From: Xanthobacteraceae bacterium
GTDB taxonomy: Bacteria; Pseudomonadota; Alphaproteobacteria; Rhizobiales; Xanthobacteraceae
DNA: 64,000 bases
Direction: 5' to 3'
Assembly (NCBI GenBank): GCA_030037885.1
Contig: JASHPU010000014.1
Coordinates: 15,986 to 79,985, forward strand
The notes below the pieces were generated by a model. The model saw nothing but the letters and a program-made list of their open reading frames with translations. It made no database searches and had not been told where the DNA came from. Numbering within the stretch: the first letter of the stretch is position 1; every line of letters starts with the position of its first letter. Of the stretch, positions 6,269-24,502 are shown in pieces. Both the position numbers and the translations under genes were made by a program.

Positions 6269-6765
6269 ATGGCCAAATCTCAAGTCGCCATGACAGTGAA
6301 CGGCACGACCGTCGAAGCGCTGGTCGAGCCGCGCACGTTGTTGATCCATTTCCTGCGCGAGGAGCTCAGGCTCACCGGTCCGCATATAGGGTGCGAAACC
6401 AGCCATTGCGGCGCCTGCACGGTCGATCTGAACGGCAAGTCGGTGAAGAGCTGCACTATGTTTGCGGTGCAGGCGAACGGCGCCGACATCCGGACCATCG
6501 AGGGCATGGCGAATCCCGACGGCACGCTGCATGCGCTGCAGGAAGGTTTTCGCGAAATGCACGGGCTGCAGTGTGGCTTCTGCACGCCGGGGATGGTCAC
6601 CCGCGCCTACCGGCTGCTTCAGGAAAACAACAATCCGAGCGAGGAAGAAATCCGCTTCGGCATTGCCGGCAACCTCTGCCGTTGCACCGGCTATCAGAAC
6701 ATCGTCAAGGCCATTCAATACGCCGCCGCGAAGCTCAACGGCGTGCCTTTCCAGGAGGCCGCAGA

Positions 6766-6769
<4 letters not shown>
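6269..6769 (+). CDS. coxS: CO dehydrogenase small ([2Fe-2S]) subunit
   Basis: Both 2Fe-2S cysteine clusters are present ([11 protein letters not shown]; CGFCTPG...CRCTGY). ATG at 6269. Confidence 0.92.
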
Positions 6770-9186
<2,417 letters not shown>

Positions 9187-9342
9187 ATCGATACGGCCGG
9201 GACACCATATGCCTGTTACCGTCACCCTGATGTGGCTGCGAAGCGGCCCGCGAAAGGCGACGGCCCGGTCCGTTCATCCTTCGAGGCGCGCTGCCCTCGC
9301 CCCTCACGATGACGGTCGCGGGCGGCGCCACGGGCCGCTCAC

Positions 9343-10218: not shown

Positions 10219-11463
10219 ATGAACGTTGGCCGCCCCACCACCGCCCGTTCCCGCGCAAGCGGAGGCGCAGATCTGGATTCCCGCTTGCGCGGGAATGAGC
10301 GGAGTGAGCCGGCATGCCGCCGGCTCGCCGGTTTTGCCCGAACGCTCCGCGACAACGGCTTCCGGGCCGGCCTTGCCGAAACGCGCGATGCGATGCGCGT
10401 GCTCGCGTCACCGGCGGCGCTGCGCGCCACGTCGTTCAAGTCGGCCTTGCGCGCCCTGTTCTGCGCGACCCATTCCGATTGGGAACGCTTCGACGAAATT
10501 TTTGATGCGTTTTGGCAAGGCCGTGACATGCGTTCGCGTCAGGTCCTTTCCGGGACGCCGAGTGCAAGTCACGCGCCGGCGCGCCGGCTTGCCGAGGCGA
10601 ACGTGCCGGCGGAGGCGCTCGGGCTTCCGGATCGACCGGAGCGGCGCAGCGAGGGCGATGACGAAAGCTCCGCCGGCGGCCGCAGCCAACGCGAAGGAGC
10701 GTCGCGCGCCGAAAATATTGCCCGCACCGACCTGCGCCACGTCGTCGATCCTGATGAGATCGCTGCGACCCACGCGCTTGCGGCACGACTGGCGCGGACC
10801 ATGCGTGCCCGGCTCGTGCGCCGCGAGCAGGTGCGCCGCCGCGGCCGTCGCCTCGACCTGCGCCGTACCATTCATCGAAACGTCTCGCGTGGCGGCACGC
10901 TGCTCGATCTCGCTTGGCGGCGGCGCAAGATCAAACCGCTGCGCCTCGTCGTCCTGCTCGACGCCTCCGGTTCGATGAGTCCCTACACAGCCTTCTTTGT
11001 CCGCTTCCTGCACGGCGTGGTCGATGCCTTCCGCGAGGCTGAAGCCTTTGTGTTCCACACCCGCCTCGCGCACGTCTCGCCGTCGCTGCGTGACCGCGAC
11101 GTGACGCGCGCCGTGGAAAAGCTCGCCCTGATGGCGCAGGGCATCGGCGGCGGTACGCGCATCGGCGAGAGCCTGGCCACCTTCAACCGCTGGCACGCGC
11201 GGCGGGTCATCAATTCGCGCACCGCACTGATGATCGTCTCCGACGGTTATGATACCGGCGAACCGGGACAGCTTGGCGAGGAAATGCGCCGGCTGCGCCG
11301 GCGTTGCCGCAGGATTATCTGGCTCAATCCGCTCATCGGCTGGCGCGATTACTCGCCGCAGGCGCGCGGCATGCAGGTGGCACTGCCTTATGTCGATCTT
11401 TTCGCGCCGGCGCACAATCTCGAAAGCCTGGCCGCCCTCGAGCCTTATCTGGCGAGGATATGA
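10219..11463 (+). CDS. coxE: VWA-domain protein CoxE (CODH maturation)
   Basis: The ATG abuts the coxD stop. MIDAS motif LLDASGSMS and CoxE-type C-terminus. The N-terminal codons run through a REP-like hairpin, so the exact start is uncertain. Confidence 0.8.
   Translation: MNVGRPTTARSRASGGADLDSRLRGNERSEPACRRLAGFARTLRDNGFRAGLAETRDAMRVLASPAALRATSFKSALRALFCATHSDWERFDEIFDAFWQGRDMRSRQVLSGTPSASHAPARRLAEANVPAEALGLPDRPERRSEGDDESSAGGRSQREGASRAENIARTDLRHVVDPDEIAATHALAARLARTMRARLVRREQVRRRGRRLDLRRTIHRNVSRGGTLLDLAWRRRKIKPLRLVVLLDASGSMSPYTAFFVRFLHGVVDAFREAEAFVFHTRLAHVSPSLRDRDVTRAVEKLALMAQGIGGGTRIGESLATFNRWHARRVINSRTALMIVSDGYDTGEPGQLGEEMRRLRRRCRRIIWLNPLIGWRDYSPQARGMQVALPYVDLFAPAHNLESLAALEPYLARI
10277..10305. 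repeat. REP-like hairpin (ATTCCCGC-TTGC-GCGGGAAT + GAGCGGAGT), copy 1, inside the coxE 5' coding region
   Basis: 8-bp stem with a 4-nt loop. Shares the 17-nt identical core GCGGGAATGAGCGGAGT with the copy at 11541-11557. Confidence 0.8.
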
Positions 11464-11528
11464 CGTGCGTTTGCGACGGAGGGGTTTGCCGCGCCAGGCG
11501 CGGACCCGCTGCTTCGAGTCAGTCTGGA

Positions 11529-11557
11529 ATTTCCGCCTTCGCGGGAATGAGCGGAGT
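11529..11557. repeat. REP-like hairpin, copy 2, immediately upstream of the coxF start
   Basis: ATTTCCGC-CTTC-GCGGGAAT followed by GAGCGGAGT. Same 17-nt core as copy 1. Confidence 0.8.
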
Positions 11558-11559
11558 TC

Positions 11560-12405
11560 ATGAAAGAGTCTGTCATGGGCCGCGCCGACGACATCCTTGA
11601 CGACATTTCCTCGCGTAAGATCGCGGGCGAATCGTTCGCGCTCGCCACCGTCGTGCGCACCGTCGCGGCGACGGCCGCGAAGGCCGGCGCCAAGGCGGTC
11701 ATCCTGCCGGACGGCACAATTTCGCAAGGCTGGATCGGCGGCGGCTGCGCCCGTGCCGCAGTGCTCAAGGCGGCGCGCGATTGCCTTGCCGACGGCAAAT
11801 CGCGCCTCGTTTCGGTGCAGCCTGAAGAGGCGCTCGAAGGCCAAGGTCATAAGCCAGGCGACGAGCAAGGCGGTGTGCGCTTTGCCAAGAATATGTGCCC
11901 GAGCCAGGGTACCATGGACATATTCGTCGAGCCGGTCCTGCCGAGGCCGCAGGTCGTGGTTTGCGGCTCGAGTCCGGTGGCCGTCGCCGTCGCTGAACTC
12001 GCCGGCCGCTCGGGTTTTGCCGTCACGGTTTGCGCGCCGGCGCCCGAGCAAGCAGCGTTCGCGAAGGCGGATCGACGCATCGAGGGATTTGCGCTCCCGG
12101 TCGACGAAACCGCATCGCGCTATGTCGTCGTCTCCACCCAAGGGCGCGGGGACGAAGCTGCCTTGCTGGCGGTGCTCGCGGTCGATACCGACTATGTGGC
12201 TTTCGTCGGAAGTCGCAAAAAGGCAGCGGCCCTGAAGGCAGCGCTGGCGAAGCGCGGCGTTGCTGCGGAGCGCTTGGCGCGCCTCAAGGCGCCGGCCGGC
12301 CTCGATCTTGGCGCCATCACGCCCGATGAGATCGCCATCTCGATCCTCGCCGAGATTGTCGTCGTGCGCCGCGGCAAGCAAGCGCGCGACGCCGCCGAAC
12401 GGTAG
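11560..12405 (+). CDS. coxF: XdhC/CoxF-family molybdoenzyme maturation protein
   Basis: XdhC_CoxI-type N-terminal domain and Rossmann-like C-terminal domain (VVVCGSSPVAVAVAELA). Position after coxE. Confidence 0.8.
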   Translation: MKESVMGRADDILDDISSRKIAGESFALATVVRTVAATAAKAGAKAVILPDGTISQGWIGGGCARAAVLKAARDCLADGKSRLVSVQPEEALEGQGHKPGDEQGGVRFAKNMCPSQGTMDIFVEPVLPRPQVVVCGSSPVAVAVAELAGRSGFAVTVCAPAPEQAAFAKADRRIEGFALPVDETASRYVVVSTQGRGDEAALLAVLAVDTDYVAFVGSRKKAAALKAALAKRGVAAERLARLKAPAGLDLGAITPDEIAISILAEIVVVRRGKQARDAAER

Positions 12406-12693
12406 TTCGAAAAGGCGACCATCGTTGACGCCTGAACGCATCCCGAGCGGGGCTTCCGCAAAATACTTCAAACCGCTCAAAGGGCCTCAAACGCCCGCAG
12501 CTTCGCGTAAACCCTTTGAAAATATGAGCACCCGGGACTTCTGGTGCGTCCACCAAACGGCTGATTTTACTGCGTGATTCCTCACGGCTTGCGGGCGAGC
12601 TGGAAACCTGAAACTCGCTGTTTCAGGGAATGTGACGGGACCACGCGTTGTCCCCATCACAGGTCGATCTTCATGACTTTCCGTCAATGCGGC

Positions 12694-13779
12694 CTATTCG
12701 ACCAGGCCGAGATTATTCAGATCGCGCAGCGTTTTCGGCCAAACCCCCTCGCGTGCGGCCTTGATGAGAACGCGTGACCACGCGACCCACCCTTCCCAAG
12801 GAATCCGCTTGTCGCGCGGTGTCCCCCAATCGAGCAGCAGCCGCAAGCCGCGCTGCGCCTGCATCAGCGCCGCGCCAAATTCGCCACCAAGAAGCTTGAT
12901 CTGTGCAAGATACAGGTAAGCCTCGGGCAGCCACGGATTGAGCTCGACCGCTTCCAGCAGGATGTCGCCGGCTTCGGCGGCGGTCAGCGACGCCGTCTCG
13001 CCTGCGGCGACACGCCAGTAGCTGGCGGTCGCCGCAGCTTCATCTTCGGGCGTCAACAAGCCCGAACAATGGTCGAAAATCGGCGGTACTGTCCCCGCCG
13101 CTTGCGGCAAGTGCTGCGCCAAGCGGGACAGCAGGCTCATATTGGCCCCGCTGGGTTGCAATCGCCCGGGCCACAGCGCCTTTGACCAATGTTCGGCAGC
13201 TCCGCGCTGACGATCTGTGTGGGGATAGCCGCCCATCACATCGTCTTGCCAGCTAAACCACTGCTCGGCGAGATCGGCGATTGTAACGGCAAGGAAGGTG
13301 CGCACGGCACCGGGCGAGAGCTCCCATCGCCGGCCATTTTTTGGATCAGCGAGAATCATGCCCTCGCGAACCGGCGCCGAATCGCCGAGCATGCGGAGCA
13401 CGAATTCGGTGCGCGGCATCATGCAGAACGTGTAGACCAGCTCCTCCACCTCGCGGCCGACATTGTCGGAAAGCACCCCACGCTCGCTGCGCACGTCGAA
13501 AAGCGCCAGGTCAACATACTCGTTGGCGTAAACGCTGTGGAACAGTCCGCAAAAGCAGGTCGCGCCCGGCTCGCCCCAGAGCCGCAGAATGCGATATGTC
13601 CCGATCAGATGATCAAGGAACACGCCGTGCTTGTGCCAACTGATCGCTGCGTTCCGCCCGGCAAGAAGCCGGATCGCCGCGTCGAGTTGCGGACTGAGCG
13701 CGGCGTAGTCGCGCGCCAGCATAAGCCTCACTTCGGCATTGATAACCGGGGTTTCTACTCTGTCCGTCACCTGGTCCAT
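12694..13779 (-). CDS. Hypothetical protein with an HD-like N-terminal region and a TPR-like C-terminus; last gene of the FAAL/ACP operon
   Basis: His-rich helical signature HKHGVFLDHLIGTYRILRLWG...GLFHSVY. C-terminal helical repeats (EAYLYLAQIKLLGGEFGAALMQAQRGLRLL). AGGAGG lies 5 nt upstream of the ATG at 13779. No function recognised. Confidence 0.45.
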   Translation of the reverse strand: MDQVTDRVETPVINAEVRLMLARDYAALSPQLDAAIRLLAGRNAAISWHKHGVFLDHLIGTYRILRLWGEPGATCFCGLFHSVYANEYVDLALFDVRSERGVLSDNVGREVEELVYTFCMMPRTEFVLRMLGDSAPVREGMILADPKNGRRWELSPGAVRTFLAVTIADLAEQWFSWQDDVMGGYPHTDRQRGAAEHWSKALWPGRLQPSGANMSLLSRLAQHLPQAAGTVPPIFDHCSGLLTPEDEAAATASYWRVAAGETASLTAAEAGDILLEAVELNPWLPEAYLYLAQIKLLGGEFGAALMQAQRGLRLLLDWGTPRDKRIPWEGWVAWSRVLIKAAREGVWPKTLRDLNNLGLVE

Positions 13780-13813
13780 CATTTCCTCCTGCCCGTCGGA
13801 TATCGATTCGGCC

Positions 13814-14761
13814 TCACGGGTGAGCGCCCCAGAAAAACAAGATCGTAACGACGGAGAAGACGCTGAGCGCTGTGGAAAGCCACGTCATGCCCGACGTCTC
13901 AGCGACGAGCACATTGTATTGCTTGGCGACAACGAAGCAGCTGGTCGCCGGCGGCAGAGCGGAAAGCAACAGTGCAGCCGCTTTCGAGGTCGAATCGAGA
14001 TCGGTTACCCAGCGGATAACGCCCCAGGTCACCAACGGGTGAAGAATGAGCTTGATCAAGGACGGGCCGATCGCTCCCTCGACGCTCTCTCTCGCCGTTT
14101 GGCCGGCGACGAACATGCCGATCGTCATCAGCGAGCACGGAATAGCGGCGCTGCCGACCAGCTCAGTCAGCGACAGAATCGGCTTTGGCAGCGTCACGAA
14201 AGCGGAGCTGAGAACGCCAAAGACGACGCCAAGGATGAGCGGATTGCGCACCAGAGAGCGGACGGTCAGGAAAAGCGCCTTGCGCGAAGACGCCATGCCG
14301 TGGCGGGACGATTCGATAAGAGCGAAAGTCAAGCCGAAAAACACGGTGACGATGACGATCGTCGCGAGAATGGCGGGCAGCGCTTGCTCCTTGCCGAACG
14401 CAATGACAAGCAGCGGAACGCCCATAAAAGCGGTGCTGGAGCAGCTGCAGTTCATCCCACGCACGCTCGCTTCCGCGGTATTGCTGTGCCAGAGCAGCCG
14501 GCTCACCAGGAAGGCGACGCCATACATGATAGCGAGACTGAGAAACCAGGTTTCCAGAAATGTCGTCTGCCAAATCTGCGCGATCGGCGTGCGGGCAAGA
14601 AAGGAGAAAAGCAGAGCAGGGAACGACGCGTAGAAGACCAGTCGATTGAGTATGTCGACGCCTTCAGCGCCGATGAAGCCGGCGCGAACCAGCAGGTAAC
14701 CGACGATCACGCAACCGAACACCGGTACGGACGTTGCGATAACCGCACTGAACATCATCAT
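13814..14761 (-). CDS. AEC (auxin efflux carrier) family transporter
   Basis: About 10 TM segments. N-terminus MFSAVIATSVPVFGCVIVGYLLVRAGF is typical of the AEC/membrane transport family. GGAGG lies just upstream of the ATG triplet run. Confidence 0.75.
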   Translation of the reverse strand: MMMFSAVIATSVPVFGCVIVGYLLVRAGFIGAEGVDILNRLVFYASFPALLFSFLARTPIAQIWQTTFLETWFLSLAIMYGVAFLVSRLLWHSNTAEASVRGMNCSCSSTAFMGVPLLVIAFGKEQALPAILATIVIVTVFFGLTFALIESSRHGMASSRKALFLTVRSLVRNPLILGVVFGVLSSAFVTLPKPILSLTELVGSAAIPCSLMTIGMFVAGQTARESVEGAIGPSLIKLILHPLVTWGVIRWVTDLDSTSKAAALLLSALPPATSCFVVAKQYNVLVAETSGMTWLSTALSVFSVVTILFFWGAHP

Positions 14762-14982
14762 GCCTCCGCGTCTTTGGCCGAGGAACCGCCTTCGAGGCCC
14801 GCCGGCCAACCGTCACGAGTTCGCCATCCGGCGGTAAGCGGTCAATCCGTCGCACGCGGAGGGACGCAGCCCCCGTTCGCCGTCGACGACCGCCCGTGTC
14901 CCGGCAAGACGCCGCAGATCGACGGCGACCCGTCGTCTGTCGAATCGTACATCCTTGCGCCGCAAAGGTGCATTCGCGAATG

Positions 14983-15492
14983 TCATTCAAGATGCTCCTT
15001 CTGCGCCGGACGCGCGCGCGGCAGGCTCGTCACGGACGCTTGCGCCATCGCCACGAGTCTCTCGCGCCCGCGCGACACGGCTATGATTTCTGCGCGGCAG
15101 ACCGCGTTCCGCACGTTCGCGATCGTCGCGTGGCCGCGGCCAATCAACTGTTCGCCGACCGCCGGCGCGAGAAGATTGATTTTGTATTCGGCGGTCACCA
15201 CGTCACCGAGCAAGGAGGCCGCCGACCAGGCGCAAGCGCTGTCGGCGGCAAAGCCGATGACTGCGCCATGAATAAAACCATGATGCTGGCGTAGCTGCGG
15301 CGTCACCGGCACAGTGAGCTCCACCTCGCCCTTGCCATAGCGTGTGAGTTGCACACCAAGACCGACGGCAAACGCGGTGCGGGCGATGAGCGAGGCAATC
15401 TCCTCCTGGGTCAGGCCAACGGCCGCCTGTTCATCAGGACCGGAAGCTTGCTTCGTCCAACCATCAGCCGTCGATCCGATTGCTGTCGCCAC
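14983..15492 (-). CDS. PaaI-type hotdog-fold thioesterase
   Basis: HGFIHGAVIGFAADSA core typical of PaaI/YdiI thioesterases. GTG start with an upstream GGGAGG. Confidence 0.7.
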   Translation of the reverse strand: MATAIGSTADGWTKQASGPDEQAAVGLTQEEIASLIARTAFAVGLGVQLTRYGKGEVELTVPVTPQLRQHHGFIHGAVIGFAADSACAWSAASLLGDVVTAEYKINLLAPAVGEQLIGRGHATIANVRNAVCRAEIIAVSRGRERLVAMAQASVTSLPRARPAQKEHLE

Positions 15493-15523
15493 GAGTGATT
15501 TTCCTCCCGATTCGCTTTAAGTC

Positions 15524-17323
15524 CTACGGTACCGCGCGGCTTTCCGGCGCCGTCTCCGTCGTCAAGGCAAATTCCGGGCTCCGGGTCGAACACGCGTCCT
15601 GATCGAGCCGTTCCAGCGTGCCGGCGAGATAGCGATGGCACGTTTCTGCGCGACGAATCTTTCCGCTCGTCGTCTTCGGGATCGTACCAATGCGGATTGG
15701 CACCACTTCGCGGACGTGGAGATCGAATTCGGCGACGATGGCAGCGCGGATGGCGGCTGTCAACGCGGCGATGTCCACCGTCCGGCTCCAACTCCGCCCG
15801 ATCTCGGCGATGACAACGAGAGCGGCATCGACACCCTCGCCGACGCACACTGCTGCCGAACAGGTCGGGCGCACGGCCGGATGCGCACTTTCTGCGTGCC
15901 TTTCGATGTCCTGCGGATAGAAATTGCGGCCACGCAGGATCAGCATGTCCTTGCGACGGCCTGCGACGAACAACGCGCCGCCATCGAGAAAGCCGAGATC
16001 GCCGGTGCGCAGGTAATATCCGGGCGATCCGTCCGCGAGTTGTGCGCGGAAGGTCGCTGCGCTGGCTTCTGCCTTATCCCAATAGCCGCGCGCGATGTTC
16101 GGGCCAGCGACCCAGATTTCGCCGAGCTCGCGGCTCGCCCTCGGCATGCAATCGTCGGGACCGACGATCCGTATCTCCTCGCCGGTCACGGCGTGGCCGC
16201 AGGCGACGAGTTCTTGCACATCGGCGGAATTTGCCAATTCGATGCGGTCGCCCTCGAGCGCGCGTCGATCGAGCGCCAGAAAAGACGATGCGGCGCCCGG
16301 CACGCCGCCCGAGACGAAGACGGTCGCTTCGGCGAGCCCATAACACGGGTAAGTGGCGCTCGCCCGAAAGCCGTAAGGCGCAAAGGCGCTGGAAAACCGG
16401 CGGACCGTATCCGCGCGGACCGGCTCGGCCGCGTTGAATGCTATGCGCCAGCAGCTCAAATCCATACCCGAGGCCTTCTCCTCCGAAAATTGCCGAACGC
16501 ACAGGTCGTAGGCGAAATCGGGCGCTCCGGCGACGTCCGCCCGATAGTCGGAAATCACTTTGAGCCAGAGCAGCGGGCGTTGGGCGAACTGCGCCGGGCG
16601 CATGAAAACGCAAAGGCCGCCGGCATAAATGGCGTGCAGCGCTATCAGAATTAATCCCATGTCGTGAAATAACGGAATCCAACTGACGAAACGAGAGTGC
16701 GGCCCGGTGTCCCATCGATCGACAATCATCTGCAAATTGGTGCGGAGATTGCCGTGGCTTACCATGACGCCCTTAGGCGTCGAGGTGGATCCCGACGTGT
16801 ATTGAAGGAACGCGAGCTCGGCGTCATTGACCGGCGGACCGCTGCGGCAGACCGCGTCCAACTTCGCCGTCACGCCGCCGTCAATCGCCAGACAGGCGGC
16901 CTGCTCGGCTTCGGGAAATGACGATATGAGCGCATCGAACGCCTCAACCGCCACCCGGTCGGTGACGATGCAACGCGGCCGGCTGTCCTGATAAATGGAG
17001 CGCGTGGCCTCCCGCAGCTTGTTGCGCCTCGGCAGTATCACGGGGACAGCGATGCGGCCGCTGCAAAGGCACGCAAAGAAGCCGATCAGGAAGTCGAGCG
17101 GAGATTCCACGGCAATGAGAACACGGTCGCCGCGCGCGGTCTGCGTCGCCAGCTTGCCGGCAAGACCAAGCGAACGCTCGTGGAGCTGACGATAGGTGAG
17201 AGCGCCTGCTTCGGCGCCGCGATCGTCAACCAGAACGACCGCCGTTTTCTCCGGGTCACGTCCGGCCCATCCCGCGAGCACGTCGGGCAACGGGATGCCT
17301 TTTGGGTAAGGCACATCGATCAT
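15524..17323 (-). CDS. Fatty acyl-AMP ligase (FAAL)
   Basis: FLQYTSGSTSTPKGVMVSHGNL and IPKTTSGKIRR adenylation motifs with FAAL-like (FadD32-type) context. The ATG overlaps the upstream thioesterase stop (ATGA). Confidence 0.85.
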   Translation of the reverse strand: MIDVPYPKGIPLPDVLAGWAGRDPEKTAVVLVDDRGAEAGALTYRQLHERSLGLAGKLATQTARGDRVLIAVESPLDFLIGFFACLCSGRIAVPVILPRRNKLREATRSIYQDSRPRCIVTDRVAVEAFDALISSFPEAEQAACLAIDGGVTAKLDAVCRSGPPVNDAELAFLQYTSGSTSTPKGVMVSHGNLRTNLQMIVDRWDTGPHSRFVSWIPLFHDMGLILIALHAIYAGGLCVFMRPAQFAQRPLLWLKVISDYRADVAGAPDFAYDLCVRQFSEEKASGMDLSCWRIAFNAAEPVRADTVRRFSSAFAPYGFRASATYPCYGLAEATVFVSGGVPGAASSFLALDRRALEGDRIELANSADVQELVACGHAVTGEEIRIVGPDDCMPRASRELGEIWVAGPNIARGYWDKAEASAATFRAQLADGSPGYYLRTGDLGFLDGGALFVAGRRKDMLILRGRNFYPQDIERHAESAHPAVRPTCSAAVCVGEGVDAALVVIAEIGRSWSRTVDIAALTAAIRAAIVAEFDLHVREVVPIRIGTIPKTTSGKIRRAETCHRYLAGTLERLDQDACSTRSPEFALTTETAPESRAVP

Positions 17324-18120
17324 CCGTATTGCGCCTCTCGCCCTTCGCCATGATCGGAAAGATACGCCGCGGCCTTGGCGACGATTGTTTCGACCAGGCG
17401 CTGCTGCTCGGCGACGTCGAAAAAGTGACGACCCGCCAGCGGCACGAAGCAGAAGTCGCACGCGGTTTCGGATCCCCAGGCCATGACTTCTTCCGCTTTC
17501 ACCACCGGATCATCGACGCCGTGAAAGGCGACGATTGGACAATCCAGCGGCGCTTCATCGACGTAACGGTAGCGGTCGGAAACCGCGAGATCGGCCCGCA
17601 TAAGGGGAAAAACGCTATTGCGCCAGCGCGGATTATCGAAGACATCGACCATCGGCCCGCCCATCTCGCGCATGACGGCTGTCAGCGCGTCGTCAGGCAG
17701 CGACCAGAGTGGGGTGTGAGACAGCGCCAACGATGGCGCGCGCCGCCCCGAAACGCACAGTGCGATCGGCCTATGAGAGCCGGCACGTCGCATGCCGCGC
17801 GCAAGATCGAACGCCAGAATGGCGCCCAGGCTGTGACCGTAGAGGATGACCGGGTAATTGCCGAGCTGCCATAGCGCGACGAGATATCTCGGTACAAACT
17901 CCTCGGCCTGCTCGATTGGAGCAATCGCGGCGAGATTGTCGCGTCCCGGCAACTGAGCCCGCACCAACACCAGCCAATCCGGCAACCATTTCGACCAGCC
18001 ATTGAACGAAAGCACGCCGCCCCCGGCGTGCGGAAAACACACCAAGAGGCAGCGGGTCTCACTATGGGACGGCGCTCGACGTAGCCAACTTGGCGGCGAG
18101 TTGGTTGGGCCGGCGTCCAT
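17320..18120 (-). CDS. Type II thioesterase (alpha/beta hydrolase)
   Basis: CFPHAGGG and GHSLGA nucleophile-elbow motifs typical of TEII/GrsT-like enzymes. Start chosen at the ATG at 18120, 14 nt after the P450 stop. Confidence 0.8.
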   Translation of the reverse strand: MDAGPTNSPPSWLRRAPSHSETRCLLVCFPHAGGGVLSFNGWSKWLPDWLVLVRAQLPGRDNLAAIAPIEQAEEFVPRYLVALWQLGNYPVILYGHSLGAILAFDLARGMRRAGSHRPIALCVSGRRAPSLALSHTPLWSLPDDALTAVMREMGGPMVDVFDNPRWRNSVFPLMRADLAVSDRYRYVDEAPLDCPIVAFHGVDDPVVKAEEVMAWGSETACDFCFVPLAGRHFFDVAEQQRLVETIVAKAAAYLSDHGEGREAQYG

Positions 18121-18134
18121 CCGGTCGATCCACG

Positions 18135-19412
18135 CTATGCGGCTGCGCCAAACCGGATCGGCAGCTTCTCGAGGCTGCGCAGAATCCGACTTTGCGTCTG
18201 CCAACGAGGCGTTGCGCCAGCGAGCGTCACGTCGGTGCGATCGACCAGAAGGCGCTCGATGACGACCTCGGCGATCGTCGCGGCGAGCGCGCCCCCCAGG
18301 CAATTGCGCATGCCATAACCAAAGGCCAGGTGCGTGTCGCTGTTGCGCCGGCTGATGTCAAAGCGCTGCGGGTCGGCAAATTGCGCCGGATCCCGATTGG
18401 CGGCGCCGAGACAAAGCAGGATCTGCTCGCCCTTGCGAATGGTGATGCCATCAAACTTGGAATCCGCGATCGCGACGCGCTTGGTCTGCTGCAGCGGCGA
18501 TTCGTAGCGCATGACCTCGTCAACCGCTTGGCGCAGCAAACTGCGGTCCCGGCGCAAGAGCGCAAGCTGGTCCGGATGTGTGAGCAGCAGGTGGACGCCA
18601 TTGCCGATCAGGGCCTTCGTGGTCTCGGTTCCCGCCACGAAGGTCATGATCGACAACAACTGAATCTCGTTACGATCTAATCTGTCGTCGCCCCACCGGG
18701 CGCTTGCGAATTTCTCTATGAGGTTGCTGCCGCCGTGGAAGGGACAGCCGTCCACGTGCTCGTGCATGACCCTGAGCAGGTTGCTCATCGAGGCGTGCGC
18801 TCGTTCATAATCGGACCGCGTCATAAGACCCGGATCAAGGAGCTGTCGCGCATCGTTGATCCAGCGCGCGAAATCGGGATGCACATCCACATCGAGATCC
18901 AGTCGTCCGGCCATGACGCGCAACGGCACGGGTTCGGCGATCGCCCGAACGACATCGGCGGTTCCGTCCCGCGCCGCCCGGTCGATTGCGGCATCGACGA
19001 TAGCCTTGATCAGGCTTCGTTCGGCGTCGATCTGGCCCCGGGTAAAGCCGCTATTGGTCAGCCGCCGCAACCGCGCATGATCGGGATTCTCGGTGAAGAC
19101 GATCGCCTTGCGGATGAAGTACTGGATCGGATCCGGCTCAGGAATTCCAAAGTCGGGCTTGTTCTTCCATATGACGTCCTCGAACAGCCGGGAGCTGTAA
19201 GTGCGACTGGACAGCACCCTGACCACATCGGCGAAGGAGGTGAAGATCCAGCTCCCGAGCATGCGGGAACGTGGGTCCTCGCGCTGCAGCCGCTCATAGA
19301 CCGGATAGGGATCCTGGTGGAATTCCTCGCTTAGAGGATTGAAGCGGAAGGGTTTGCCTCGCGCTTCGTTCGACCGTGTCGCGCCGGCCGGCCGCGCATC
19401 GGGCTCCAGCAT
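18135..19412 (-). CDS. Cytochrome P450 monooxygenase
   Basis: I-helix AGTETT, EVMR (ExxR), and haem loop FGYGMRNCLG. ATG at 19412 is preceded by GGGGAG. Confidence 0.9.
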   Translation of the reverse strand: MLEPDARPAGATRSNEARGKPFRFNPLSEEFHQDPYPVYERLQREDPRSRMLGSWIFTSFADVVRVLSSRTYSSRLFEDVIWKNKPDFGIPEPDPIQYFIRKAIVFTENPDHARLRRLTNSGFTRGQIDAERSLIKAIVDAAIDRAARDGTADVVRAIAEPVPLRVMAGRLDLDVDVHPDFARWINDARQLLDPGLMTRSDYERAHASMSNLLRVMHEHVDGCPFHGGSNLIEKFASARWGDDRLDRNEIQLLSIMTFVAGTETTKALIGNGVHLLLTHPDQLALLRRDRSLLRQAVDEVMRYESPLQQTKRVAIADSKFDGITIRKGEQILLCLGAANRDPAQFADPQRFDISRRNSDTHLAFGYGMRNCLGGALAATIAEVVIERLLVDRTDVTLAGATPRWQTQSRILRSLEKLPIRFGAAA

Positions 19413-19443
19413 CTCTGGTACTCCCCGGTGGGCCGGACCTGCG

Positions 19444-20382
19444 CTAGGCCAGCGACATGCTGCCGTCGGTCTTGACGGGCTCGCCTGTCGCGCGCCAATC
19501 GTTGGTAATCGGCCGCAGGCAGAAACGCAGCAGATTGATCTTGCCCATGCGGAAACCAACGGAACCGAGCTTGTAGAAGCGCTCGAAACGCTGCACCTGC
19601 TCTTCGCCGGCCAGGCTGACGGCCTCCGCGCGCCGGCTGCGCAAGTTCTTCAGCCACTCGTCATAACTTCTGGCATAGTCGAAGCGATCGTTGCGCACGG
19701 CCACGACTTCGAACAGGCCGTCCACGGCGTTCACGACATCGGCAAGGTAGGGAAGATCCGATTCGGGGTAGATTTCGGTGATCATGAACTCGTTTGCTTC
19801 GTGCCGCTTCATGTTGCCGAAGGCGATCGTCTGCAGCGAGAGCCGACCTCGCGGCGACAGCCAGCGATGGCAGCGCTCGAAGAAATCACGATAGACAAGC
19901 ATCTTCTCCGCCTGGGTCTCGTCAGGCTTGGCAAAGTGCTCGAAGGCGCCAATCGAAATAATGGAGTCGAACTTCTCCTGCGGCTCGTAGCTCGCCCAGT
20001 TCTCGACCCGGACCTCCACCTTGTCGAGACCAAGTCCGTTGAGATAATCGGCTTGCGCCTGACTGAGGGTAAGGCCGACCGCCCGACGGACATTCGGCAA
20101 ACGATTGAGCCGCGTGAGGATGGTCCCCCAGCCGCAGCCGACTTCAAGCACCGAGGCGGCGTCCTGCACCTTCGCGCTGTTCAAGTGCCAATTGATCTTG
20201 CGCAACTGGGCGGTCTCGAGATCGTCATTGGGATTCGCGAATAGCGCCGCCGAATAAGTGTAGGACGGTCCGAGCATCAGCCGCCAGAATTCGTTGCCGA
20301 TATCGTAGTGATGCTTGATGCCTTCCGGCGAGCCGCCGTATTTGTGCTCTTCGCGGCGTCGCAGTGCAGTGACTTTGCTCAT
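19444..20382 (-). CDS. Cyclopropane-fatty-acyl-phospholipid/mycolic acid synthase-family SAM methyltransferase
   Basis: HYDIGNEFWRLML and the SAM motif VLEVGCGWGT. AGGAGG lies 6 nt upstream of the ATG at 20382. Confidence 0.85.
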   Translation of the reverse strand: MSKVTALRRREEHKYGGSPEGIKHHYDIGNEFWRLMLGPSYTYSAALFANPNDDLETAQLRKINWHLNSAKVQDAASVLEVGCGWGTILTRLNRLPNVRRAVGLTLSQAQADYLNGLGLDKVEVRVENWASYEPQEKFDSIISIGAFEHFAKPDETQAEKMLVYRDFFERCHRWLSPRGRLSLQTIAFGNMKRHEANEFMITEIYPESDLPYLADVVNAVDGLFEVVAVRNDRFDYARSYDEWLKNLRSRRAEAVSLAGEEQVQRFERFYKLGSVGFRMGKINLLRFCLRPITNDWRATGEPVKTDGSMSLA

Positions 20383-20405
20383 CACTTTCCTCCTATTTGC
20401 GAAAC

Positions 20406-20693
20406 TCAGGCGACGTTCGCACGCGGCTGCTCGCTGGCGCTGGCAGTGACATATCGCGCAAGCTCGTTGATCGTCGGATATTCAAAGAGCAAAGACGGCT
20501 CGAGATCGAGGCCGCTCCACTCCTCAAGGTCGAGGATGAGCGCCACCGCCATCACCGAGTCGAGACCGAGCCGATCAAAATCGGCGTCGGCATCGATTTT
20601 ACCGGGGTCGGTGTGCAGCGTTTTGGCCAAAAACAGCAGGCTGTGTTGACGAACCGAATCCACTGTCAGAACCGGCGAACGACTGGCACTCAT
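20406..20693 (-). CDS. Free-standing acyl carrier protein
   Basis: 95 aa with the phosphopantetheine attachment motif GLDSVMAV. Good RBS (GAGGAGAGGG). Confidence 0.85.
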   Translation of the reverse strand: MSASRSPVLTVDSVRQHSLLFLAKTLHTDPGKIDADADFDRLGLDSVMAVALILDLEEWSGLDLEPSLLFEYPTINELARYVTASASEQPRANVA

Positions 20694-20785
20694 GGATATC
20701 CCTCTCCTCTCAAGAAGCGATTACGCAAGTCTGGTGCTGCGGTAGTTCAGCGCCGCGTTGGCGGCGGTCGTTCACTGCATTTGCA

Positions 20786-21742
20786 TCACGCCGCGCGTTC
20801 AGCCAGGCGTTGGGCGGGAACCGTTTTGACGTCCCAAACAAGCCCCAATGCCTGAAGCAGCCGGATCAGGTAGTACCCCGGGTCGACGCGATACCAGGTG
20901 AGAGCAAATGAAGCAGAATGCGGGAAAGCATGATGGTTGTGATGCCAGCCCTCGCCCCAGGAGAACAGCGCAAGAAGCCCGCTATTGCCGCTGTGGTCGC
21001 GGCACTTGTAGGGCTTGGAGCCCCAGATGTGCAGGAACGAGTTGAGACTCCACATCGCGTTCGAGACCACAAACATGCGCACGGCGCCGCCCCACAGGAA
21101 ACCGTTGAGAGCGCCGATCCACGTCCCGGTGATAAGCGCGGCGGCGGCGGTTGGGATTACAAGCCCCAACACGATCCACGTCATGTAATGACGGCTGATC
21201 CAGAGCAACCTGTAGTCGGACATGAGTTCGGGAGTATAGTAATTCACGTTGGGATACTCATGACCCATCATCCAGGTAAAATGCGCATGGACGAAGCCGC
21301 GAAGGCGAGCCGATCGCGTTTCGCCGTGGAGATTGGGCGAATGCATATCGCCCGGCTTGTCGGAGCATTCGTGATGCCGGCGATGCATCGCAGTCCAGGA
21401 GATCAGCGAGCCCAGTCCCGCCATCGACCCGGCAATCGCCAGAGCAGCGCGGACAGCAGGATGAGCCTTGAAGCTGGCATGGGCAAAAAGACGGTGATAG
21501 CCCAAAGTCTGACCGACGCTCGTGATCGACCACATGATGAGGAAGATGGCGAAGACCGGCCAGCCGAGCGGGTACCAGAACAGCAACGCAATCGCTACTG
21601 CGGTGCCGATCGGCGGCAGGACGGTGAAGAGAAGAAAATGCCGTATCTGGATGCGGCGAAGAAAGTCGCTCTGGATCGCCTTCTTGCCTCGCCGCCCGTC
21701 GGGCGTCTCGTAGTACCGACTGTCTATCGATTCTAGGTACAT
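20786..21742 (-). CDS. Membrane-bound acyl desaturase (stearoyl-CoA/Delta9-like, three His boxes)
   Basis: His boxes HRLFAH, HRRHH and HNHHAF with intervening TM segments. Confidence 0.85.
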   Translation of the reverse strand: MYLESIDSRYYETPDGRRGKKAIQSDFLRRIQIRHFLLFTVLPPIGTAVAIALLFWYPLGWPVFAIFLIMWSITSVGQTLGYHRLFAHASFKAHPAVRAALAIAGSMAGLGSLISWTAMHRRHHECSDKPGDMHSPNLHGETRSARLRGFVHAHFTWMMGHEYPNVNYYTPELMSDYRLLWISRHYMTWIVLGLVIPTAAAALITGTWIGALNGFLWGGAVRMFVVSNAMWSLNSFLHIWGSKPYKCRDHSGNSGLLALFSWGEGWHHNHHAFPHSASFALTWYRVDPGYYLIRLLQALGLVWDVKTVPAQRLAERAA

Positions 21743-21794
21743 GGATCAGGCTCCTAAGCATCATGATCGCGTTGCGGTTGCCGGGCAGACGGCG

Positions 21795-22856
21795 TCACTC
21801 CGCCGCACGGGACACTGCCGACGCCTCCTCCGACCAACGCTTGACGAGCGCGACATGAATTGCGCGTTCTCCGGCGAAGGCGTTGCGACCATGACTGAAC
21901 AAGACGTTGTCCAGCAGCAGCACGTCGCCACGGACCCAGCGATGCGGCACGGCAAAGCGGCGGTGCAGATCGTAGAGATACAGCGCATCCTCCCGGCTGA
22001 CCTCGGTCCCATCGCCATGGAAGACGCGGTCAACGAGGTGCGGTGCCTCGGTAAGCGCGCGCTCAATCGCCTGCGCCTCAGCCACACGTCCATCGTCGCG
22101 CGCCCATTGCAGGGTACAGTGGGGCGAGAAAATGTGGACCTGGTTGAACCAGACTTCTTCGCCGGTTATGGGGTGACGCGTCGTAACCGGTCGAACCTCC
22201 TGCCAAAGCTGCACGGAATCGTCGTCGAGCCAGCTCACGCGCCACTTGCGCGCATCGGCTATGCGCTGCACTTCGGAACGCTCTTTGACGCCGAATGCCT
22301 CGGGCCACGACTTCGCCACGCCGGGTTTTTTATGCACGCTCTCCGGGCTCGGCAACGTTCGCCGCAATTGAACGCCGCCCTTGCTGATGAAACGCTCGCG
22401 CACCGCCGGATCCAACGCGCGCGTCAGGCGACGCATATCGCCCGTCGTCGTCTCGCCGCCTTGTGTCGTCGGCGCCGCGCCGAAGAAAGCGATCTTGGCC
22501 GGAAAATCGTCCGTGTAAGACATTTCCTGATGGAGCGGGATGGAAAACGTCGGCGGCAGCTCCGTCGCCGTCATGACCTTGCCGTGGACGGCCCGGCGCG
22601 GCGACGTGCCGCCGATATAATCCATCAGATCGGGCGTCATGGCCTCCATGACAACCGCGAAATCGGCAGCCGTCGCGACCTTGTTGAAGCCACGGATACA
22701 AACGCCACCGCCCTCGAGGAGGGCGCTATCGAGAAGGCGCCGATCCTTCTTCAACCAACTGACGACCTCCGCGACCGAAGCATCCTGCCCGCTCCTGGCC
22801 TGCCAGCAAACCGGTGCGCCCGCCTCGCCCGCTCTCGTCTCCTCAATCTGGATCAT
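21795..22856 (-). CDS. TauD/TfdA-family Fe(II)/2-oxoglutarate dioxygenase (CAS/SyrP-like HxE subtype)
   Basis: Facial-triad candidates LHQEMSY (H-x-E) and LFSHGRNAFAGER. The ATG overlaps the DUF962 stop (ATGA). Confidence 0.8.
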   Translation of the reverse strand: MIQIEETRAGEAGAPVCWQARSGQDASVAEVVSWLKKDRRLLDSALLEGGGVCIRGFNKVATAADFAVVMEAMTPDLMDYIGGTSPRRAVHGKVMTATELPPTFSIPLHQEMSYTDDFPAKIAFFGAAPTTQGGETTTGDMRRLTRALDPAVRERFISKGGVQLRRTLPSPESVHKKPGVAKSWPEAFGVKERSEVQRIADARKWRVSWLDDDSVQLWQEVRPVTTRHPITGEEVWFNQVHIFSPHCTLQWARDDGRVAEAQAIERALTEAPHLVDRVFHGDGTEVSREDALYLYDLHRRFAVPHRWVRGDVLLLDNVLFSHGRNAFAGERAIHVALVKRWSEEASAVSRAAE

Positions 22857-23362
22857 CGTACGCCTCCATCGTGACCTGCCTGGCTGGCGACAAGCGGGCC
22901 AACCACAGTTTGCGGTGCGACCCAGTCACCCGTGTAAAGCGCGATGAAGTAAATTGGACCAACCAAAGATTGAATGCCGTTGCGCGTGAAATTCGGAGCG
23001 TTCTTTTCCCACACCAGATGTCCGAGCAGCTGAATGATCCAGCCGGCGATGCCGGCGAGAACGACAAGCCATACGGGCGTCACCCAACTGACGGCGAGGC
23101 TAGCAATAAGGGCGACAAGGGTGATGGAGCCGAGCTTGAGATCGGTTTTGAGATACCAGATGCCGACAGCGACGAGCGCGACATCCGCCACGGTCAACAT
23201 GCCGTGCGGCAAACCGCCGACCGGGACGAGGTGCAGCCAATCGAGCATCCCTACCGCGTTAAAGAAGATCAGCGGGATTGCGATTTTGTGGGTTAGTTGA
23301 TTGATGGGATTTCGGTGGAAGGTGTCGTATTCCGCGAACAGGACTTTCAGCCTCTCGTTCAT
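22853..23362 (-). CDS. DUF962 / Mpo1-like membrane protein (putative 2-hydroxy-fatty-acid dioxygenase family); first gene of the operon
   Basis: YDTFHRNPINQLTHKIAIP and GHLVWEKNAP His motifs characteristic of DUF962, with 4 TM-like segments. Start chosen at the ATG at 23362. Confidence 0.7.
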   Translation of the reverse strand: MNERLKVLFAEYDTFHRNPINQLTHKIAIPLIFFNAVGMLDWLHLVPVGGLPHGMLTVADVALVAVGIWYLKTDLKLGSITLVALIASLAVSWVTPVWLVVLAGIAGWIIQLLGHLVWEKNAPNFTRNGIQSLVGPIYFIALYTGDWVAPQTVVGPLVASQAGHDGGVR

Positions 23363-23396
23363 GTCGATACTCCCGTTACCAGGCGTCTCGGACGCT

Positions 23397-23536
23397 ATTG
23401 GCCCGCACTTATGTGCCGAGGCGGGCGACGGTCTTGATCGGCAATATGGCCTTATCGGCAATGGCTACTGGCCCGCACTGACAGGCCGGCACGGGCGACA
23501 GTCCTGATCGGCAATATGGTATTATCAGCAATGGCT
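23397..23536. repeat. 70-bp tandem direct repeat x2 in the operon leader
   Basis: Units at 23397-23466 and 23467-23536 align without gaps at 57/70 identical positions (hand alignment). Confidence 0.9.
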
Positions 23537-23548
23537 GATAATACCATA
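23515..23548. promoter_or_regulatory. Perfect 15-bp inverted repeat TATGGTATTATCAGC-AATG-GCTGATAATACCATA (candidate operator)
   Basis: Read directly from the sequence. It lies in an A/T-rich stretch (about 37% G+C over 23521-23590 by hand count), about 150 bp upstream of the first operon gene. Confidence 0.5.
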
Positions 23549-23639
23549 CATACTACTTAATGTCACATACCACCTGTTAGCACATACCACTTGGCGTCGA
23601 GTGAGTCAATCGGCCGAAGATCGATCAGACCTGATATGC

Positions 23640-23813: not shown

Positions 23814-24281
23814 TCAGCCTTCGCTGTGACCGCGGGGTAGACTCGTACTTTCCGGCAAGGCGCCACTGGCGCGGGAGAACACCGCATTGGCGCGTACGAT
23901 CCGCTCATCCTTGACCATCAGAAAAGCGTTGGCGAATGCCAGGCGCGATCCGACTTTATGGACATCCACGCGGGCTTCGACCCAGTCGCCGACTTTTGCG
24001 GCTCCGGCAAAATCGGCGCACAGGCTTGCCGTGGTCAGCGCGGCTGGCGGCCGCTGGCTGAAGGCCGCACGGTAGCCGAGCGCGATGTCAATGAGGGTGA
24101 GGAGCAGGCCGCCGTGAGCACTACCACGCGCATTCGCGTGTTTGGGCAGCACGCGCACGCCAACCACAAAGCTGCCATCGGGCTCCTTGCGGTAGTAGAA
24201 TGGGCCGACCGTCTCCAAAAATGGGCTTGAGCGGAACAGGGGTTCGAAACCGGCAGGCGGAGCGGGGTCTTGATCAGCCAT
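23814..24281 (-). CDS. PaaI-family hotdog thioesterase
   Basis: SAHGGLLLTLIDIALG core. GGAGG upstream of the ATG at 24281. Confidence 0.7.
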   Translation of the reverse strand: MADQDPAPPAGFEPLFRSSPFLETVGPFYYRKEPDGSFVVGVRVLPKHANARGSAHGGLLLTLIDIALGYRAAFSQRPPAALTTASLCADFAGAAKVGDWVEARVDVHKVGSRLAFANAFLMVKDERIVRANAVFSRASGALPESTSLPRGHSEG

Positions 24282-24502
24282 GGCGAAGGCCTCCTTCTGG
24301 CCGCCGGTACCTTGTCGCAGGTTTGGATCTGCCACAACCGTCGGCCGCGATGGGTAGAACACCCGCCGGCATTTTCAATCGCTCAGCCGGGTTGAGACGC
24401 TGCATTCCGGCGAGGCGGTCAGCCGCTGCTTCCGAGCAGCCTAAGGGTGCGGATGTCGCCCGCCGTGACGTTCGCAGCGGACGTGCTCGGCGCCATGACG
24501 TC

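Follow-up and report, generated by a model that had tools for sequence, protein, structure and literature searches.

We examined a 64,000-nt stretch of DNA from a Xanthobacteraceae bacterium (contig JASHPU010000014.1 of assembly GCA_030037885.1; the whole stretch is called the window below), in which an original prediction had placed a pathway for a lipid product. At 12694–23362 lie eleven intact open reading frames, co-directional and all on the minus strand, among them genes for a fatty acyl-AMP ligase (FAAL) and a free-standing acyl carrier protein (ACP). This is a real, widely shared and uncharacterised operon that probably tailors a fatty acid and then handles the released acid as a 2-hydroxy acid. 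The cluster is not a one-off, but a member of a widespread, horizontally dispersed family built of two modules: module A holds the genes for tailoring on a carrier protein, and module B holds genes that point to 2-hydroxy acids. We regard it as a promising starting point for finding a new secreted lipid, and not as a categorically new system.

In transcription order the genes encode an Mpo1-like protein (DUF962), a TauD-family dioxygenase, a desaturase (FA_desaturase), the ACP (PP-binding), a CMAS-family methyltransferase, a cytochrome P450, a thioesterase (PF00975), the FAAL, a PaaI-like hotdog protein (4HBT), an AEC-family carrier (Mem_trans) and a DUF6817 protein. Domain families were assigned with Pfam and NCBIfam, which confirmed all eleven of the domain calls first made for these genes. 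Gene starts were taken from the calls in an identical public contig (L001, from a metagenome-assembled genome [MAG], GCA_030047375.1), and a Logan assembly (L002) holds the same genes with the same calls as L001 and the window. The junctions measure -4, 52, 92, 23, 31, 14, -4, 31, 173 or 221, and 31 nt. The two overlaps are ATGA sequences, one joining the Mpo1-like stop to the TauD start (22853–22856), the other the thioesterase stop to the FAAL start (17320–17323). The longest gap, before the AEC gene, is 173 nt if that gene starts at TTG 14809 and 221 nt if it starts at ATG 14761. Strand, overlaps and spacing are as originally described, apart from this second possible value for the gap of 221 nt. 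Neither KS, AT, C or A domains nor halogenases were found with Pfam and NCBIfam among the eleven genes or the immediately flanking genes examined. The notion of a coherent FAAL/ACP-centred unit free of ketosynthase, polyketide synthase (PKS) and nonribosomal peptide synthetase (NRPS) genes held up in this respect, and also in the conserved synteny described next.

An alignment of TauD-like homologues was used to scan genomes, one for each species, and 37 loci were retrieved; these were mapped by tblastn with the eleven window proteins, and contexts were also taken from gene calls. At about 20 loci a desaturase-ACP-CMAS-P450-thioesterase-FAAL-hotdog set lies beside a TauD gene, with 38–88% identity by tblastn. 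The carriers are Stellaceae MAGs, six Stappia genomes, Burkholderia ubonensis, Paraburkholderia sediminicola, Variovorax paradoxus, Bordetella genomosp. 13, one betaproteobacterial MAG and five Eremiobacterota/Vulcanimicrobiota MAGs. Gene-called contexts bear out the set in B. ubonensis, Stappia and Thalassospira marina; in Paraburkholderia (L017) it is present minus the thioesterase. A query with the CMAS protein revealed that its clade is much larger and added variants from Burkholderia singularis and Myxococcus fulvus, where desaturase-ACP-CMAS-thioesterase genes occur with a FAAL and an orthologous TauD (45% identity) and the P450 is missing. In all, the gene set recurs at more than 20 loci from several phyla; its core, with the P450 counted as optional, spans Alpha- and Betaproteobacteria, Eremiobacterota and Myxococcus at 40–88% identity. 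The desaturase, ACP and CMAS genes are adjacent in all related loci, the ACP always directly between the other two. An orthologous TauD is present in every variant cluster from the TauD query, and likewise in the B. singularis and M. fulvus variants.

All eleven genes are maintained by purifying selection. Measured against L047, a close relative 92–94% identical to the window, their ratios of nonsynonymous to synonymous substitution rates (dN/dS) range from 0.03 to 0.28, with the desaturase at 0.03 and the Mpo1-like gene at 0.18. Because the arrangement recurs across phyla and its genes are under purifying selection, the block is a conserved functional unit and did not come together by chance. 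The opposite view, that unrelated genes merely happen to point the same way here, is left untouched by our simple promoter and terminator scans, whose counts equalled the shuffled expectation and which are hence uninformative on operon structure. That explanation is scarcely credible, however, given synteny conserved across phyla, two 4-nt start/stop overlaps, gaps mostly of no more than 52 nt, and selection acting on every gene. The patchy distribution across phyla implies old horizontal transfer.

Some variants carry additional genes. In Gloeobacter violaceus (L046; BA000045.2, 2049670–2070560) a desaturase-ACP-CMAS-P450-thioesterase cassette adjoins KS-containing PKS genes, and the same locus has a second desaturase and a CMAS-methyltransferase fusion. 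In Stappia and Thalassospira marina (CP024200), at L041–L043, an eight-gene core precedes genes for a class II aldolase-family protein, a 308-aa protein and an A-PCP-C NRPS module; in the Stappia variant a phosphopantetheinyl transferase (PPTase) gene follows the NRPS module. This arrangement suggests a lipo-amino-acid product. The 308-aa protein had no Pfam match, and the idea that it is a diverged DUF6817 was rejected at an hhalign probability of 0.1%. A fusion of TauD to Aldolase_II was noted in Mucilaginibacter (P0118).

Module A and tailoring on a carrier protein

The product of the gene at 15524–17323 (599 aa) is a FAAL by every comparison made. Its best NCBIfam matches are FAAL models (PRK05850 at 2e-126; FadD32, FadD21 and FadD28), and its best matches in the PDB, namely 7r7f (2.7e-131), 3kxw, FadD32, FadD23 and 3pbk, are all FAALs. 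Acyl-CoA ligases match at 1e-26 or worse, some 100 orders of magnitude behind the FAAL structures. The free-standing ACP (20406–20693, 95 aa; Pfam PP-binding 4e-17) has a GLDS phosphopantetheine site. Directly upstream of it lies the membrane fatty-acyl desaturase (20786–21742, 318 aa; Pfam FA_desaturase 4.6e-16), of the stearoyl-CoA desaturase (SCD) type, with the His boxes HRLFAH, HRRHH and HHNHH and with SCD1 (4ymk, 6.6e-26) and 4zyo as its nearest structures. Desaturases of the SCD type act on thioester substrates.

On the other side of the ACP is the S-adenosylmethionine (SAM)-dependent methyltransferase of the CFAS/CMAS family (19444–20382, 312 aa; Pfam CMAS 8e-53). Its nearest structures are CmaA1, PcaA and MmaA2 (about 1e-31), and 267 of its residues align to CmaA1. 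It is a single-domain protein like these mycolic-acid enzymes, and the N-terminal domain of phospholipid cyclopropane fatty acid (CFA) synthases is absent. The bicarbonate-binding set of such enzymes we take to be Cys35, Glu140, His167 and Tyr232 in CmaA1 numbering, with His167 a ligand of the bicarbonate. Gln takes the place of His167 in all 121 clade members (Q184 of the window enzyme and 120 retrieved proteins, P0198–P0317). At the position of Cys35 the window enzyme has Ala, and the clade as a whole Ala, Cys or Ser; the Glu and Tyr positions are conserved. The Gln sets this clade apart from the canonical cyclopropane synthases. Since His has changed to Gln throughout the clade and the Cys35 position varies, cyclopropanation by the window enzyme should not be assumed. 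A natural ACP-CMAS fusion (P0273) is encoded directly upstream of a FAAL. That fusion, together with the FshA/FshE/FshF system of the fischerazole cluster discussed below, supports the view that the window enzyme may act on ACP-bound chains.

Two further enzymes complete the module. The cytochrome P450 (18135–19412, 425 aa; Pfam p450 3.8e-28) belongs to the CYP107/EryF-like bacterial class; its best PDB match is EryF (1e-54), its heme Cys motif is FGYGMRNCLG, and the acid-alcohol pair is intact in its I-helix (AGTETT). The type II alpha/beta-hydrolase thioesterase (17320–18120, 266 aa; Pfam PF00975 1.3e-27) has a GHSLG motif and is nearest in structure to RifR (7e-37) and RedJ (2e-35). The block also encodes a PaaI-like hotdog-fold protein of the 4HBT family (14983–15492, 169 aa), with matches to PDB 3e1e (2e-15), NCBIfam TIGR00369 (2.5e-9, above the cut-off) and Pfam 4HBT (2.8e-4) and with 50–58% identity to its counterparts in related clusters. 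It is presumed, with some uncertainty, to be an acyl-thioester hydrolase.

Enzymes of these kinds could also serve the cell's own envelope, making, for instance, a membrane-lipid acyl chain with an unusual branch, cyclopropane ring or hydroxyl group in place of a secreted product. Desaturases, relatives of CFA synthase and 2-hydroxylation are classic means of modifying membrane lipids, the neighbouring genes are of housekeeping type, GC content is unremarkable, and acyltransferase-independent export is unproven. Yet a FAAL with a dedicated ACP and a RifR/RedJ-type thioesterase is the signature of lipid loading and release in specialised metabolism, and the cluster lacks an acyltransferase that could attach the chain to a lipid backbone. 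The patchy distribution across phyla also speaks against remodelling of the envelope, as does the coupling of the Stappia and Thalassospira variants to NRPS genes (with a PPTase) and of the Gloeobacter variant to PKS genes. We therefore rate an envelope role as improbable.

Module B, 2-hydroxy acids and the proposed pathway

The TauD/TfdA-family protein is an Fe(II)/2-oxoglutarate (2OG) dioxygenase of 353 aa (21795–22856; Pfam TauD 6.5e-28). Its metal-binding triad, H109-x-E111...H322, and its 2OG arginine, R331, are invariant in 30 homologues, and its structural model has the TauD fold at a mean confidence (pLDDT) of 92. The nearest solved structure is At3g21360 (PDB 1y0z), at 7.5e-25 by phmmer and with a Foldseek template-modelling (TM) score of 0.75–0.81; the sulfoquinovose dioxygenase SqoD is also among its nearest solved relatives. 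TauD-family enzymes with known substrates (TauD, TfdA/AAD, AtsK and SqoD) typically hydroxylate the carbon adjoining an acidic group. A homologue 41% identical to the window protein was seen in a low-GC gammaproteobacterial MAG (L025, 9968–13678), where the next genes encode a member of the aromatic amino acid lyase/aminomutase family and an aminotransferase.

The first gene of the operon (22853–23362) encodes the Mpo1-like membrane protein of 169 aa, which matches Pfam PF06127 at 1.3e-13, with 51.3 bits against a cut-off of 24. It occurs only in window-type clusters (L003, L013, L016 and L047), and in the window and its relatives it is translationally coupled to TauD.

The last gene (12694–13782) encodes a 362-aa protein with an N-terminal DUF6817 domain (Pfam PF20680 1e-23), putatively HD-like, and a C-terminal TPR-like helical domain. 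Residues H50, H58, H82, N87 and D170 are invariant in 31 homologues. An AlphaFold model has a pLDDT of 91, and Foldseek finds its C-terminal half TPR-like; the sole HD-fold match is 7qoe, an HD-domain hydrolase (probability 0.98, TM score normalised to the target 0.50, E 0.26). In three proteins, P0195–P0197, DUF6817 is fused to 2OG-oxygenase domains (PF05118 Asp/Arg hydroxylase, PF13640), which ties it independently to Fe/2OG hydroxylases. TauD is followed directly by DUF6817 at 11 loci (L010, L012, L014, L015, L017–L020, L023, L028 and L040), usually with an AEC carrier before them. Full-length DUF6817-TPR homologues (33–38% identity) were also found in flowering plants (Salvia, Erythranthe, Phalaenopsis and Perilla) and a diatom (P0175–P0194). 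Both halves of the TauD/DUF6817 pair thus have eukaryotic counterparts, At3g21360 for one and these plant and diatom proteins for the other.

The AEC-family (Mem_trans) membrane carrier (13814–14761; Pfam Mem_trans 1.8e-30) has about 315 aa, or 331 aa if read from TTG 14809. Its gene adjoins TauD and/or DUF6817 at L010, L012, L014, L015, L018–L020, L022, L023, L028, L040, L047 and L049. Further companions vary with the carrier. Ramlibacter (L020) has LysR-GlcD-AEC-TauD-DUF6817 with module A missing, and L049 has GlcDEF-like 2-hydroxy-acid oxidase genes in place of the hotdog gene. The B. ubonensis variant adds a mandelate-racemase-family (MR_MLE) gene, and in B. singularis TauD, 2-Hacid_dh and aminotransferase genes are consecutive. 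Every one of these variable companions is an enzyme of 2-hydroxy or 2-oxo acids. From the companion genes and the known chemistry of the TauD family, we infer that TauD would make a 2-hydroxy acid and that DUF6817 and/or Mpo1 would remove its C1 oxidatively; for both the alpha-hydroxylation and the C1 removal this is guilt by association and not proof. Two tandem TauD paralogues (10001–10999 and 11160–12179 of L003) are present in the Stellaceae MAG to which L003 and L049 belong (DASPSJ010000109.1).

Another set of 2-hydroxy-acid genes belonged to the ancestral module. Directly behind DUF6817, the Stellaceae MAG (L049) carries larA, larC, a PP-loop larE-like gene and larB, and so do L047 and L048, which are closely related to the window. 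By blastn the window and L047 are collinear at 92–94% identity save for one segment: L047 11170–15136 (larA, larC, larE and larB; about 3,967 nt) has no counterpart in the window. In its place the window has 143 nt (12473–12615), the scar of a deletion, next to a relic of larA at 12616–12674 on the minus strand. The relic, identified by tblastn with residues 1–20 of the L047 LarA, comprises the first ~20 codons of the gene, with a stop at codon 6. No lar genes lie elsewhere in the 64-kb window. To go by this comparison, the window copy is a derivative that arose by a deletion of about 4 kb, and the ancestral unit, as seen in relatives, would have had 15 genes and not 11. The proposed eleven-gene operon is present in full but is not the ancestral unit. 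In relatives the natural unit numbers 15 genes, and the eleven of the window should not be taken for a whole pathway.

On balance we lean towards an eight-step reading of the cluster, in which an acid is loaded, tailored, released, alpha-oxidised and exported. The FAAL would adenylate a free fatty acid and load it onto the dedicated ACP (step 1), and the SCD-type desaturase would put a cis double bond into the ACP thioester (step 2). The CMAS-family enzyme would then add a SAM-derived carbon at that double bond, with a cyclopropane ring, or else a methyl, methylene or vinyl branch, as the possible outcome (step 3), the P450 would oxygenate the chain (step 4), and the RifR/RedJ-like thioesterase would free the acid (step 5). 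TauD would hydroxylate the carbon next to the carboxylate of the freed acid (step 6). The iron-dependent, HD-like DUF6817 protein and/or the Mpo1-like dioxygenase would cut oxidatively between C1 and C2, leaving a chain one carbon shorter (step 7), and the product would leave through the AEC carrier (step 8). Ancestrally, module B would have included LarA and its cofactor genes larB, larC and larE, a Ni-pincer racemase module that the window has lost. Gene content, domain families, conserved synteny, the deletion and purifying selection are observed; from them we infer the substrate, the order and regiochemistry of the steps, the chemistry of alpha-hydroxylation and cleavage, and which way the carrier transports. 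Precedent from related systems supports the tailoring half well. Loading, tethered tailoring, release and export, as first proposed, indeed remain the best reading for the FAAL, ACP, desaturase, CMAS enzyme, P450 and type II thioesterase. The scheme fits the DUF962/Mpo1, TauD and HD-like proteins less well, and the proposed 'two or three oxygenations' of a tethered chain are unlikely to include theirs, as these proteins belong to a separable module that stands alone as GlcD-AEC-TauD-DUF6817 in Ramlibacter.

Several observations weigh against the eight-step reading. The TauD subfamily has no characterised member, At3g21360 itself being without known function, and homologues at 40–50% identity also occur in non-lipid contexts. 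The canonical HD dyad of the DUF6817 protein reads HS (H82-S83), and Foldseek returned no match for the protein at E≤0.001, which makes the HD-like assignment weak at the fold level. In the window TauD and DUF6817 stand at opposite ends of the operon, nine genes apart. Module B without module A in Ramlibacter could mean that a different small acid is the substrate. Mpo1 and DUF6817 together look redundant under an alpha-oxidation model, and the conserved PaaI-like hotdog protein is left without an explained role. The block has no redox partner gene for the P450 or the desaturase and no PPTase gene. Nor does the reading explain how the window pathway copes without LarA.

Alternatively, the two modules could be functionally independent neighbours. 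Module A would then tailor a fatty acid, while AEC-TauD-DUF6817 (with Mpo1, LarA or GlcD) would be an uptake and catabolic unit, or a precursor-supply unit, for some other alpha-substituted acid, akin to the nutrient scavenging of PhnY/PhnZ, TmpA/TmpB or SqoD, and might provide or dispose of a molecule other than that on the ACP. In keeping with this, module B stands alone behind a LysR regulator in Ramlibacter (L020), the AEC family includes importers and the direction of transport is unreadable from sequence, TauD has At3g21360 and the catabolic SqoD as its nearest solved relatives, and TauD homologues are found in non-lipid contexts (L008 and L025). However, the orthologous TauD stays with the desaturase, ACP, CMAS, thioesterase and FAAL genes through differing accessory genes and gene orders, and in the window it is coupled to Mpo1 and lies directly upstream of the desaturase in the same tight operon. 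Independence of the two modules is accordingly an unlikely alternative, if the strongest that we have considered.

The same TauD also raises the question of isonitrile lipopeptides (ScoB-E/Rv0097-0100), in whose pathway amine addition to an enoyl-ACP falls to a hotdog protein and an oxidative decarboxylation to the TauD enzyme. FAAL, ACP, hotdog and TauD proteins co-occur here as well, and most variants have the FAAL, hotdog and TauD genes as neighbours (several of them with AEC between the last two), mirroring Rv0097–Rv0099. ScoE and Rv0097 are among the best fold matches of TauD after At3g21360 (E about 1e-12, TM about 0.6), and an NRPS module is present in the Stappia and Thalassospira variants. 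But neither ScoE nor Rv0097 was retrieved by phmmer at E≤0.01, and at 12–14% identity they do no better than TauD, PvcB, AtsK and TfdA-like proteins, as expected of a generic fold match. The hotdog protein matches PaaI-type 4HBT, with Rv0098/FcoT not among its matches; an NRPS of the C-A-T-R type was looked for in the window and not found; and the companions LarA, GlcD, Mpo1 and MR_MLE make no sense for isonitrile chemistry. An isonitrile-type pathway is very improbable, and we rejected the cluster as an isonitrile lipopeptide cluster, its TauD and hotdog proteins not being of the ScoE/ScoD type.

Returning to the eight-step reading, a more far-reaching form of it may be entertained tentatively. 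The cluster would then represent an undescribed bacterial route of alpha-oxidation attached to thiotemplated tailoring, with TauD as a 2-hydroxylase, the mono-iron DUF6817 and Mpo1 each cutting off C1, and an ancestral nickel-pincer LarA matching stereochemistry between them. Their substrate would be a fatty acid given a one-carbon branch or ring by the new His-to-Gln CMAS clade, and their product a secreted odd-chain signalling or antimicrobial lipid. The same two-enzyme chemistry might also lie behind the orphan plant proteins. If the eight-step model is right, there would be a PKS/NRPS-independent route to branched or cyclopropanated, oxygenated and chain-shortened fatty acids, spanning Burkholderia, Bordetella, Variovorax, marine Stappia and Thalassospira, and uncultured Eremiobacterota. 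It would give first functions to the At3g21360-like TauD clade, to DUF6817, to bacterial Mpo1/DUF962 and to a CMAS clade with an altered active site, and a first lipid substrate to a LarA-type nickel-pincer racemase. New biocatalysts to functionalise remote alkyl positions would be a further gain.

Leader and flanking genes

Upstream of the operon is a putative promoter and leader (23394–23566, minus strand), with a sigma-70-like site at 23566–23538 followed by tandem repeats. There are two repeats of 70 nt each at 23394–23533, 81% identical, and 31 nt separate them from the first start codon. Both repeats include CCATTGCYGATAA..CCATATTGCCGATCA as well as a GC-rich inverted repeat; the motif occurs twice, with 0 expected. 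Just upstream (leader region 23394–23620, minus strand) there are three or four GTATG(T)G motifs. The arrangement is conserved in L047. An Rfam scan of the operon and leader gave no match at E≤1. This arrangement is possibly an operator or an attenuator.

About 450 nt upstream of the operon, also on the minus strand, is a second 4HBT hotdog thioesterase gene (23814–24362). We rejected it as a twelfth member: counterparts are present only in the identical or near-identical L002 and L047, and none was found at L003 and L016, the more distantly related loci that extend far enough upstream to show one.

One flank of the cluster holds CoxE, XdhC/CoxI and a molybdo-flavoprotein dehydrogenase, and the other a phosphoketolase, so that the placement between a cox cluster and central carbon genes was right. 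The former set, at 3714–12405 on the strand opposite to the cluster, is of CO-dehydrogenase/xanthine-dehydrogenase type (flavoprotein, molybdopterin large subunit, AAA protein, CoxE and XdhC/CoxI) and is preceded by a gene for an MHYT-LytTR regulator. The bordering gene relic and unusual repeats noticed earlier are likewise real, being the 5′ remnant of larA at 12616–12674 and the 2 × 70-nt tandem repeat. That they mark an accessory insertion is unproven. GC content is 0.60–0.63 in the cluster and 0.60–0.67 in the rest of the window, and composition was rejected as a sign of horizontal insertion since it does not clearly deviate. Both flanks are the same in the 92–94% identical L047. The cox-side flank is shared with both L047 and L048, so the position of the cluster is stable among close relatives.

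Relation to known systems

No description of this gene set was found in the full-text literature; comparison with MIBiG/antiSMASH was outside that search, so that a characterised member remains possible. The earlier view that the combination matches no characterised pathway stands for the full gene set in the literature searched. It does not stand for the sub-cassette of FAAL, ACP, desaturase, CMAS and P450, which is known from the biosynthesis of fischerazole (PMC13548996).

For module B the closest parallels are the pairs PhnY/PhnZ, TmpA/TmpB and SmaO/SmaX, each an Fe/2OG enzyme paired with an iron enzyme of the HD superfamily; by its domains, the TauD/DUF6817 pair of the window is a candidate for another. 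In analogy to PhnY/PhnZ and TmpA/TmpB, SmaO (Fe/2OG) and SmaX together hydroxylate the position beside a carboxylate and go on to split the alpha-hydroxy acid so formed, and SmaX is an atypical mono-iron HD-like enzyme that matches DUF6817 by HHpred (PMC12186529). Both SmaX and the window DUF6817 protein lack the Asp of the HD dyad, the window protein having HS. They differ in other respects. The substrates of the SmaO/SmaX-type systems are a phosphonate or a peptidyl aspartate, whereas that of the window pair would be a lipid carboxylic acid. The window DUF6817 protein has an extra TPR-like C-terminal domain relative to the HD-oxygenase cascades, and the two genes are apart in the window, although adjacent in most relatives.

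Yeast Mpo1 is a one-step 2-hydroxy fatty acid dioxygenase of alpha-oxidation whose product is the Cn-1 acid (PMC10398889). The Mpo1-like protein of the window is bacterial, has 169 aa and is tied to the yeast enzyme by its family profile alone; the job that we propose for it is the same. No characterised bacterial Mpo1-like member was found in the literature searched. The LarA superfamily racemises or epimerises 2-hydroxy acids (PMC7583248, PMC11770544), and the LarA survey checked mentions no LarA that acts on fatty 2-hydroxy acids. Of the LarA/LarBCE nickel-pincer system, L047, L048 and L049 have larA, larC, larE and larB, whereas the window keeps only the 20-codon relic.

Among systems that produce modified fatty acids, the cyclopropane medium-chain fatty acids of Labrenzia, considered in view of the Stappia relatives that carry the cluster, were rejected as the product, the cluster proposed for them consisting of two CFAS genes, an aminotransferase and a chorismate mutase, with no FAAL, ACP or P450 (PMC6213206). 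JamABC/TtuABC and the polyyne clusters (cay, pgn, ccn and col) come nearer: in them, as in the window, a FAAL and a dedicated ACP go together with a membrane desaturase of the SCD type that works on an ACP thioester (PMC8406139). Polyyne clusters are also PKS/NRPS-free and, like the window, have a thioesterase (and sometimes a P450), giving a free modified fatty acid. Their seven-gene core, however, comprises a FAAL, an ACP, three desaturases, a thioesterase and a rubredoxin (PMC8406139). With a single desaturase and no rubredoxin, the window cluster was rejected as a polyyne or alkyne cluster. Those clusters contain neither a CMAS gene nor a TauD/HD-like module, and the window FAAL gene is not beside those of the desaturase and ACP.

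The best precedent for module A is the fischerazole (fsh) cluster of Fischerella sp. PCC 9431, characterised in July 2026, in which FshA (a FAAL) loads FshE (an ACP) (PMC13548996). In vitro, FshF, of the CMAS/CFAS family, converts a tethered cis-unsaturated acyl chain to vinyl-branched and cyclopropanated products; the cluster also holds the desaturase FshD and the P450 FshL, and many uncharacterised homologues are reported from other phyla (PMC13548996). We liken the window CMAS enzyme to FshF by family and gene context. The fsh cluster alone has PKS/NRPS modules and three halogenases, and the window alone has a type II thioesterase for release. TauD, DUF6817, Mpo1 and the AEC carrier are likewise found in the window and not in fsh, and the same is true of the LarA of the window's relatives. 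What the two clusters share is a FAAL, a free-standing ACP, a membrane desaturase, a CMAS/CFAS methyltransferase and a P450, and with them a logic of loading, desaturation, one-carbon transfer and hydroxylation.

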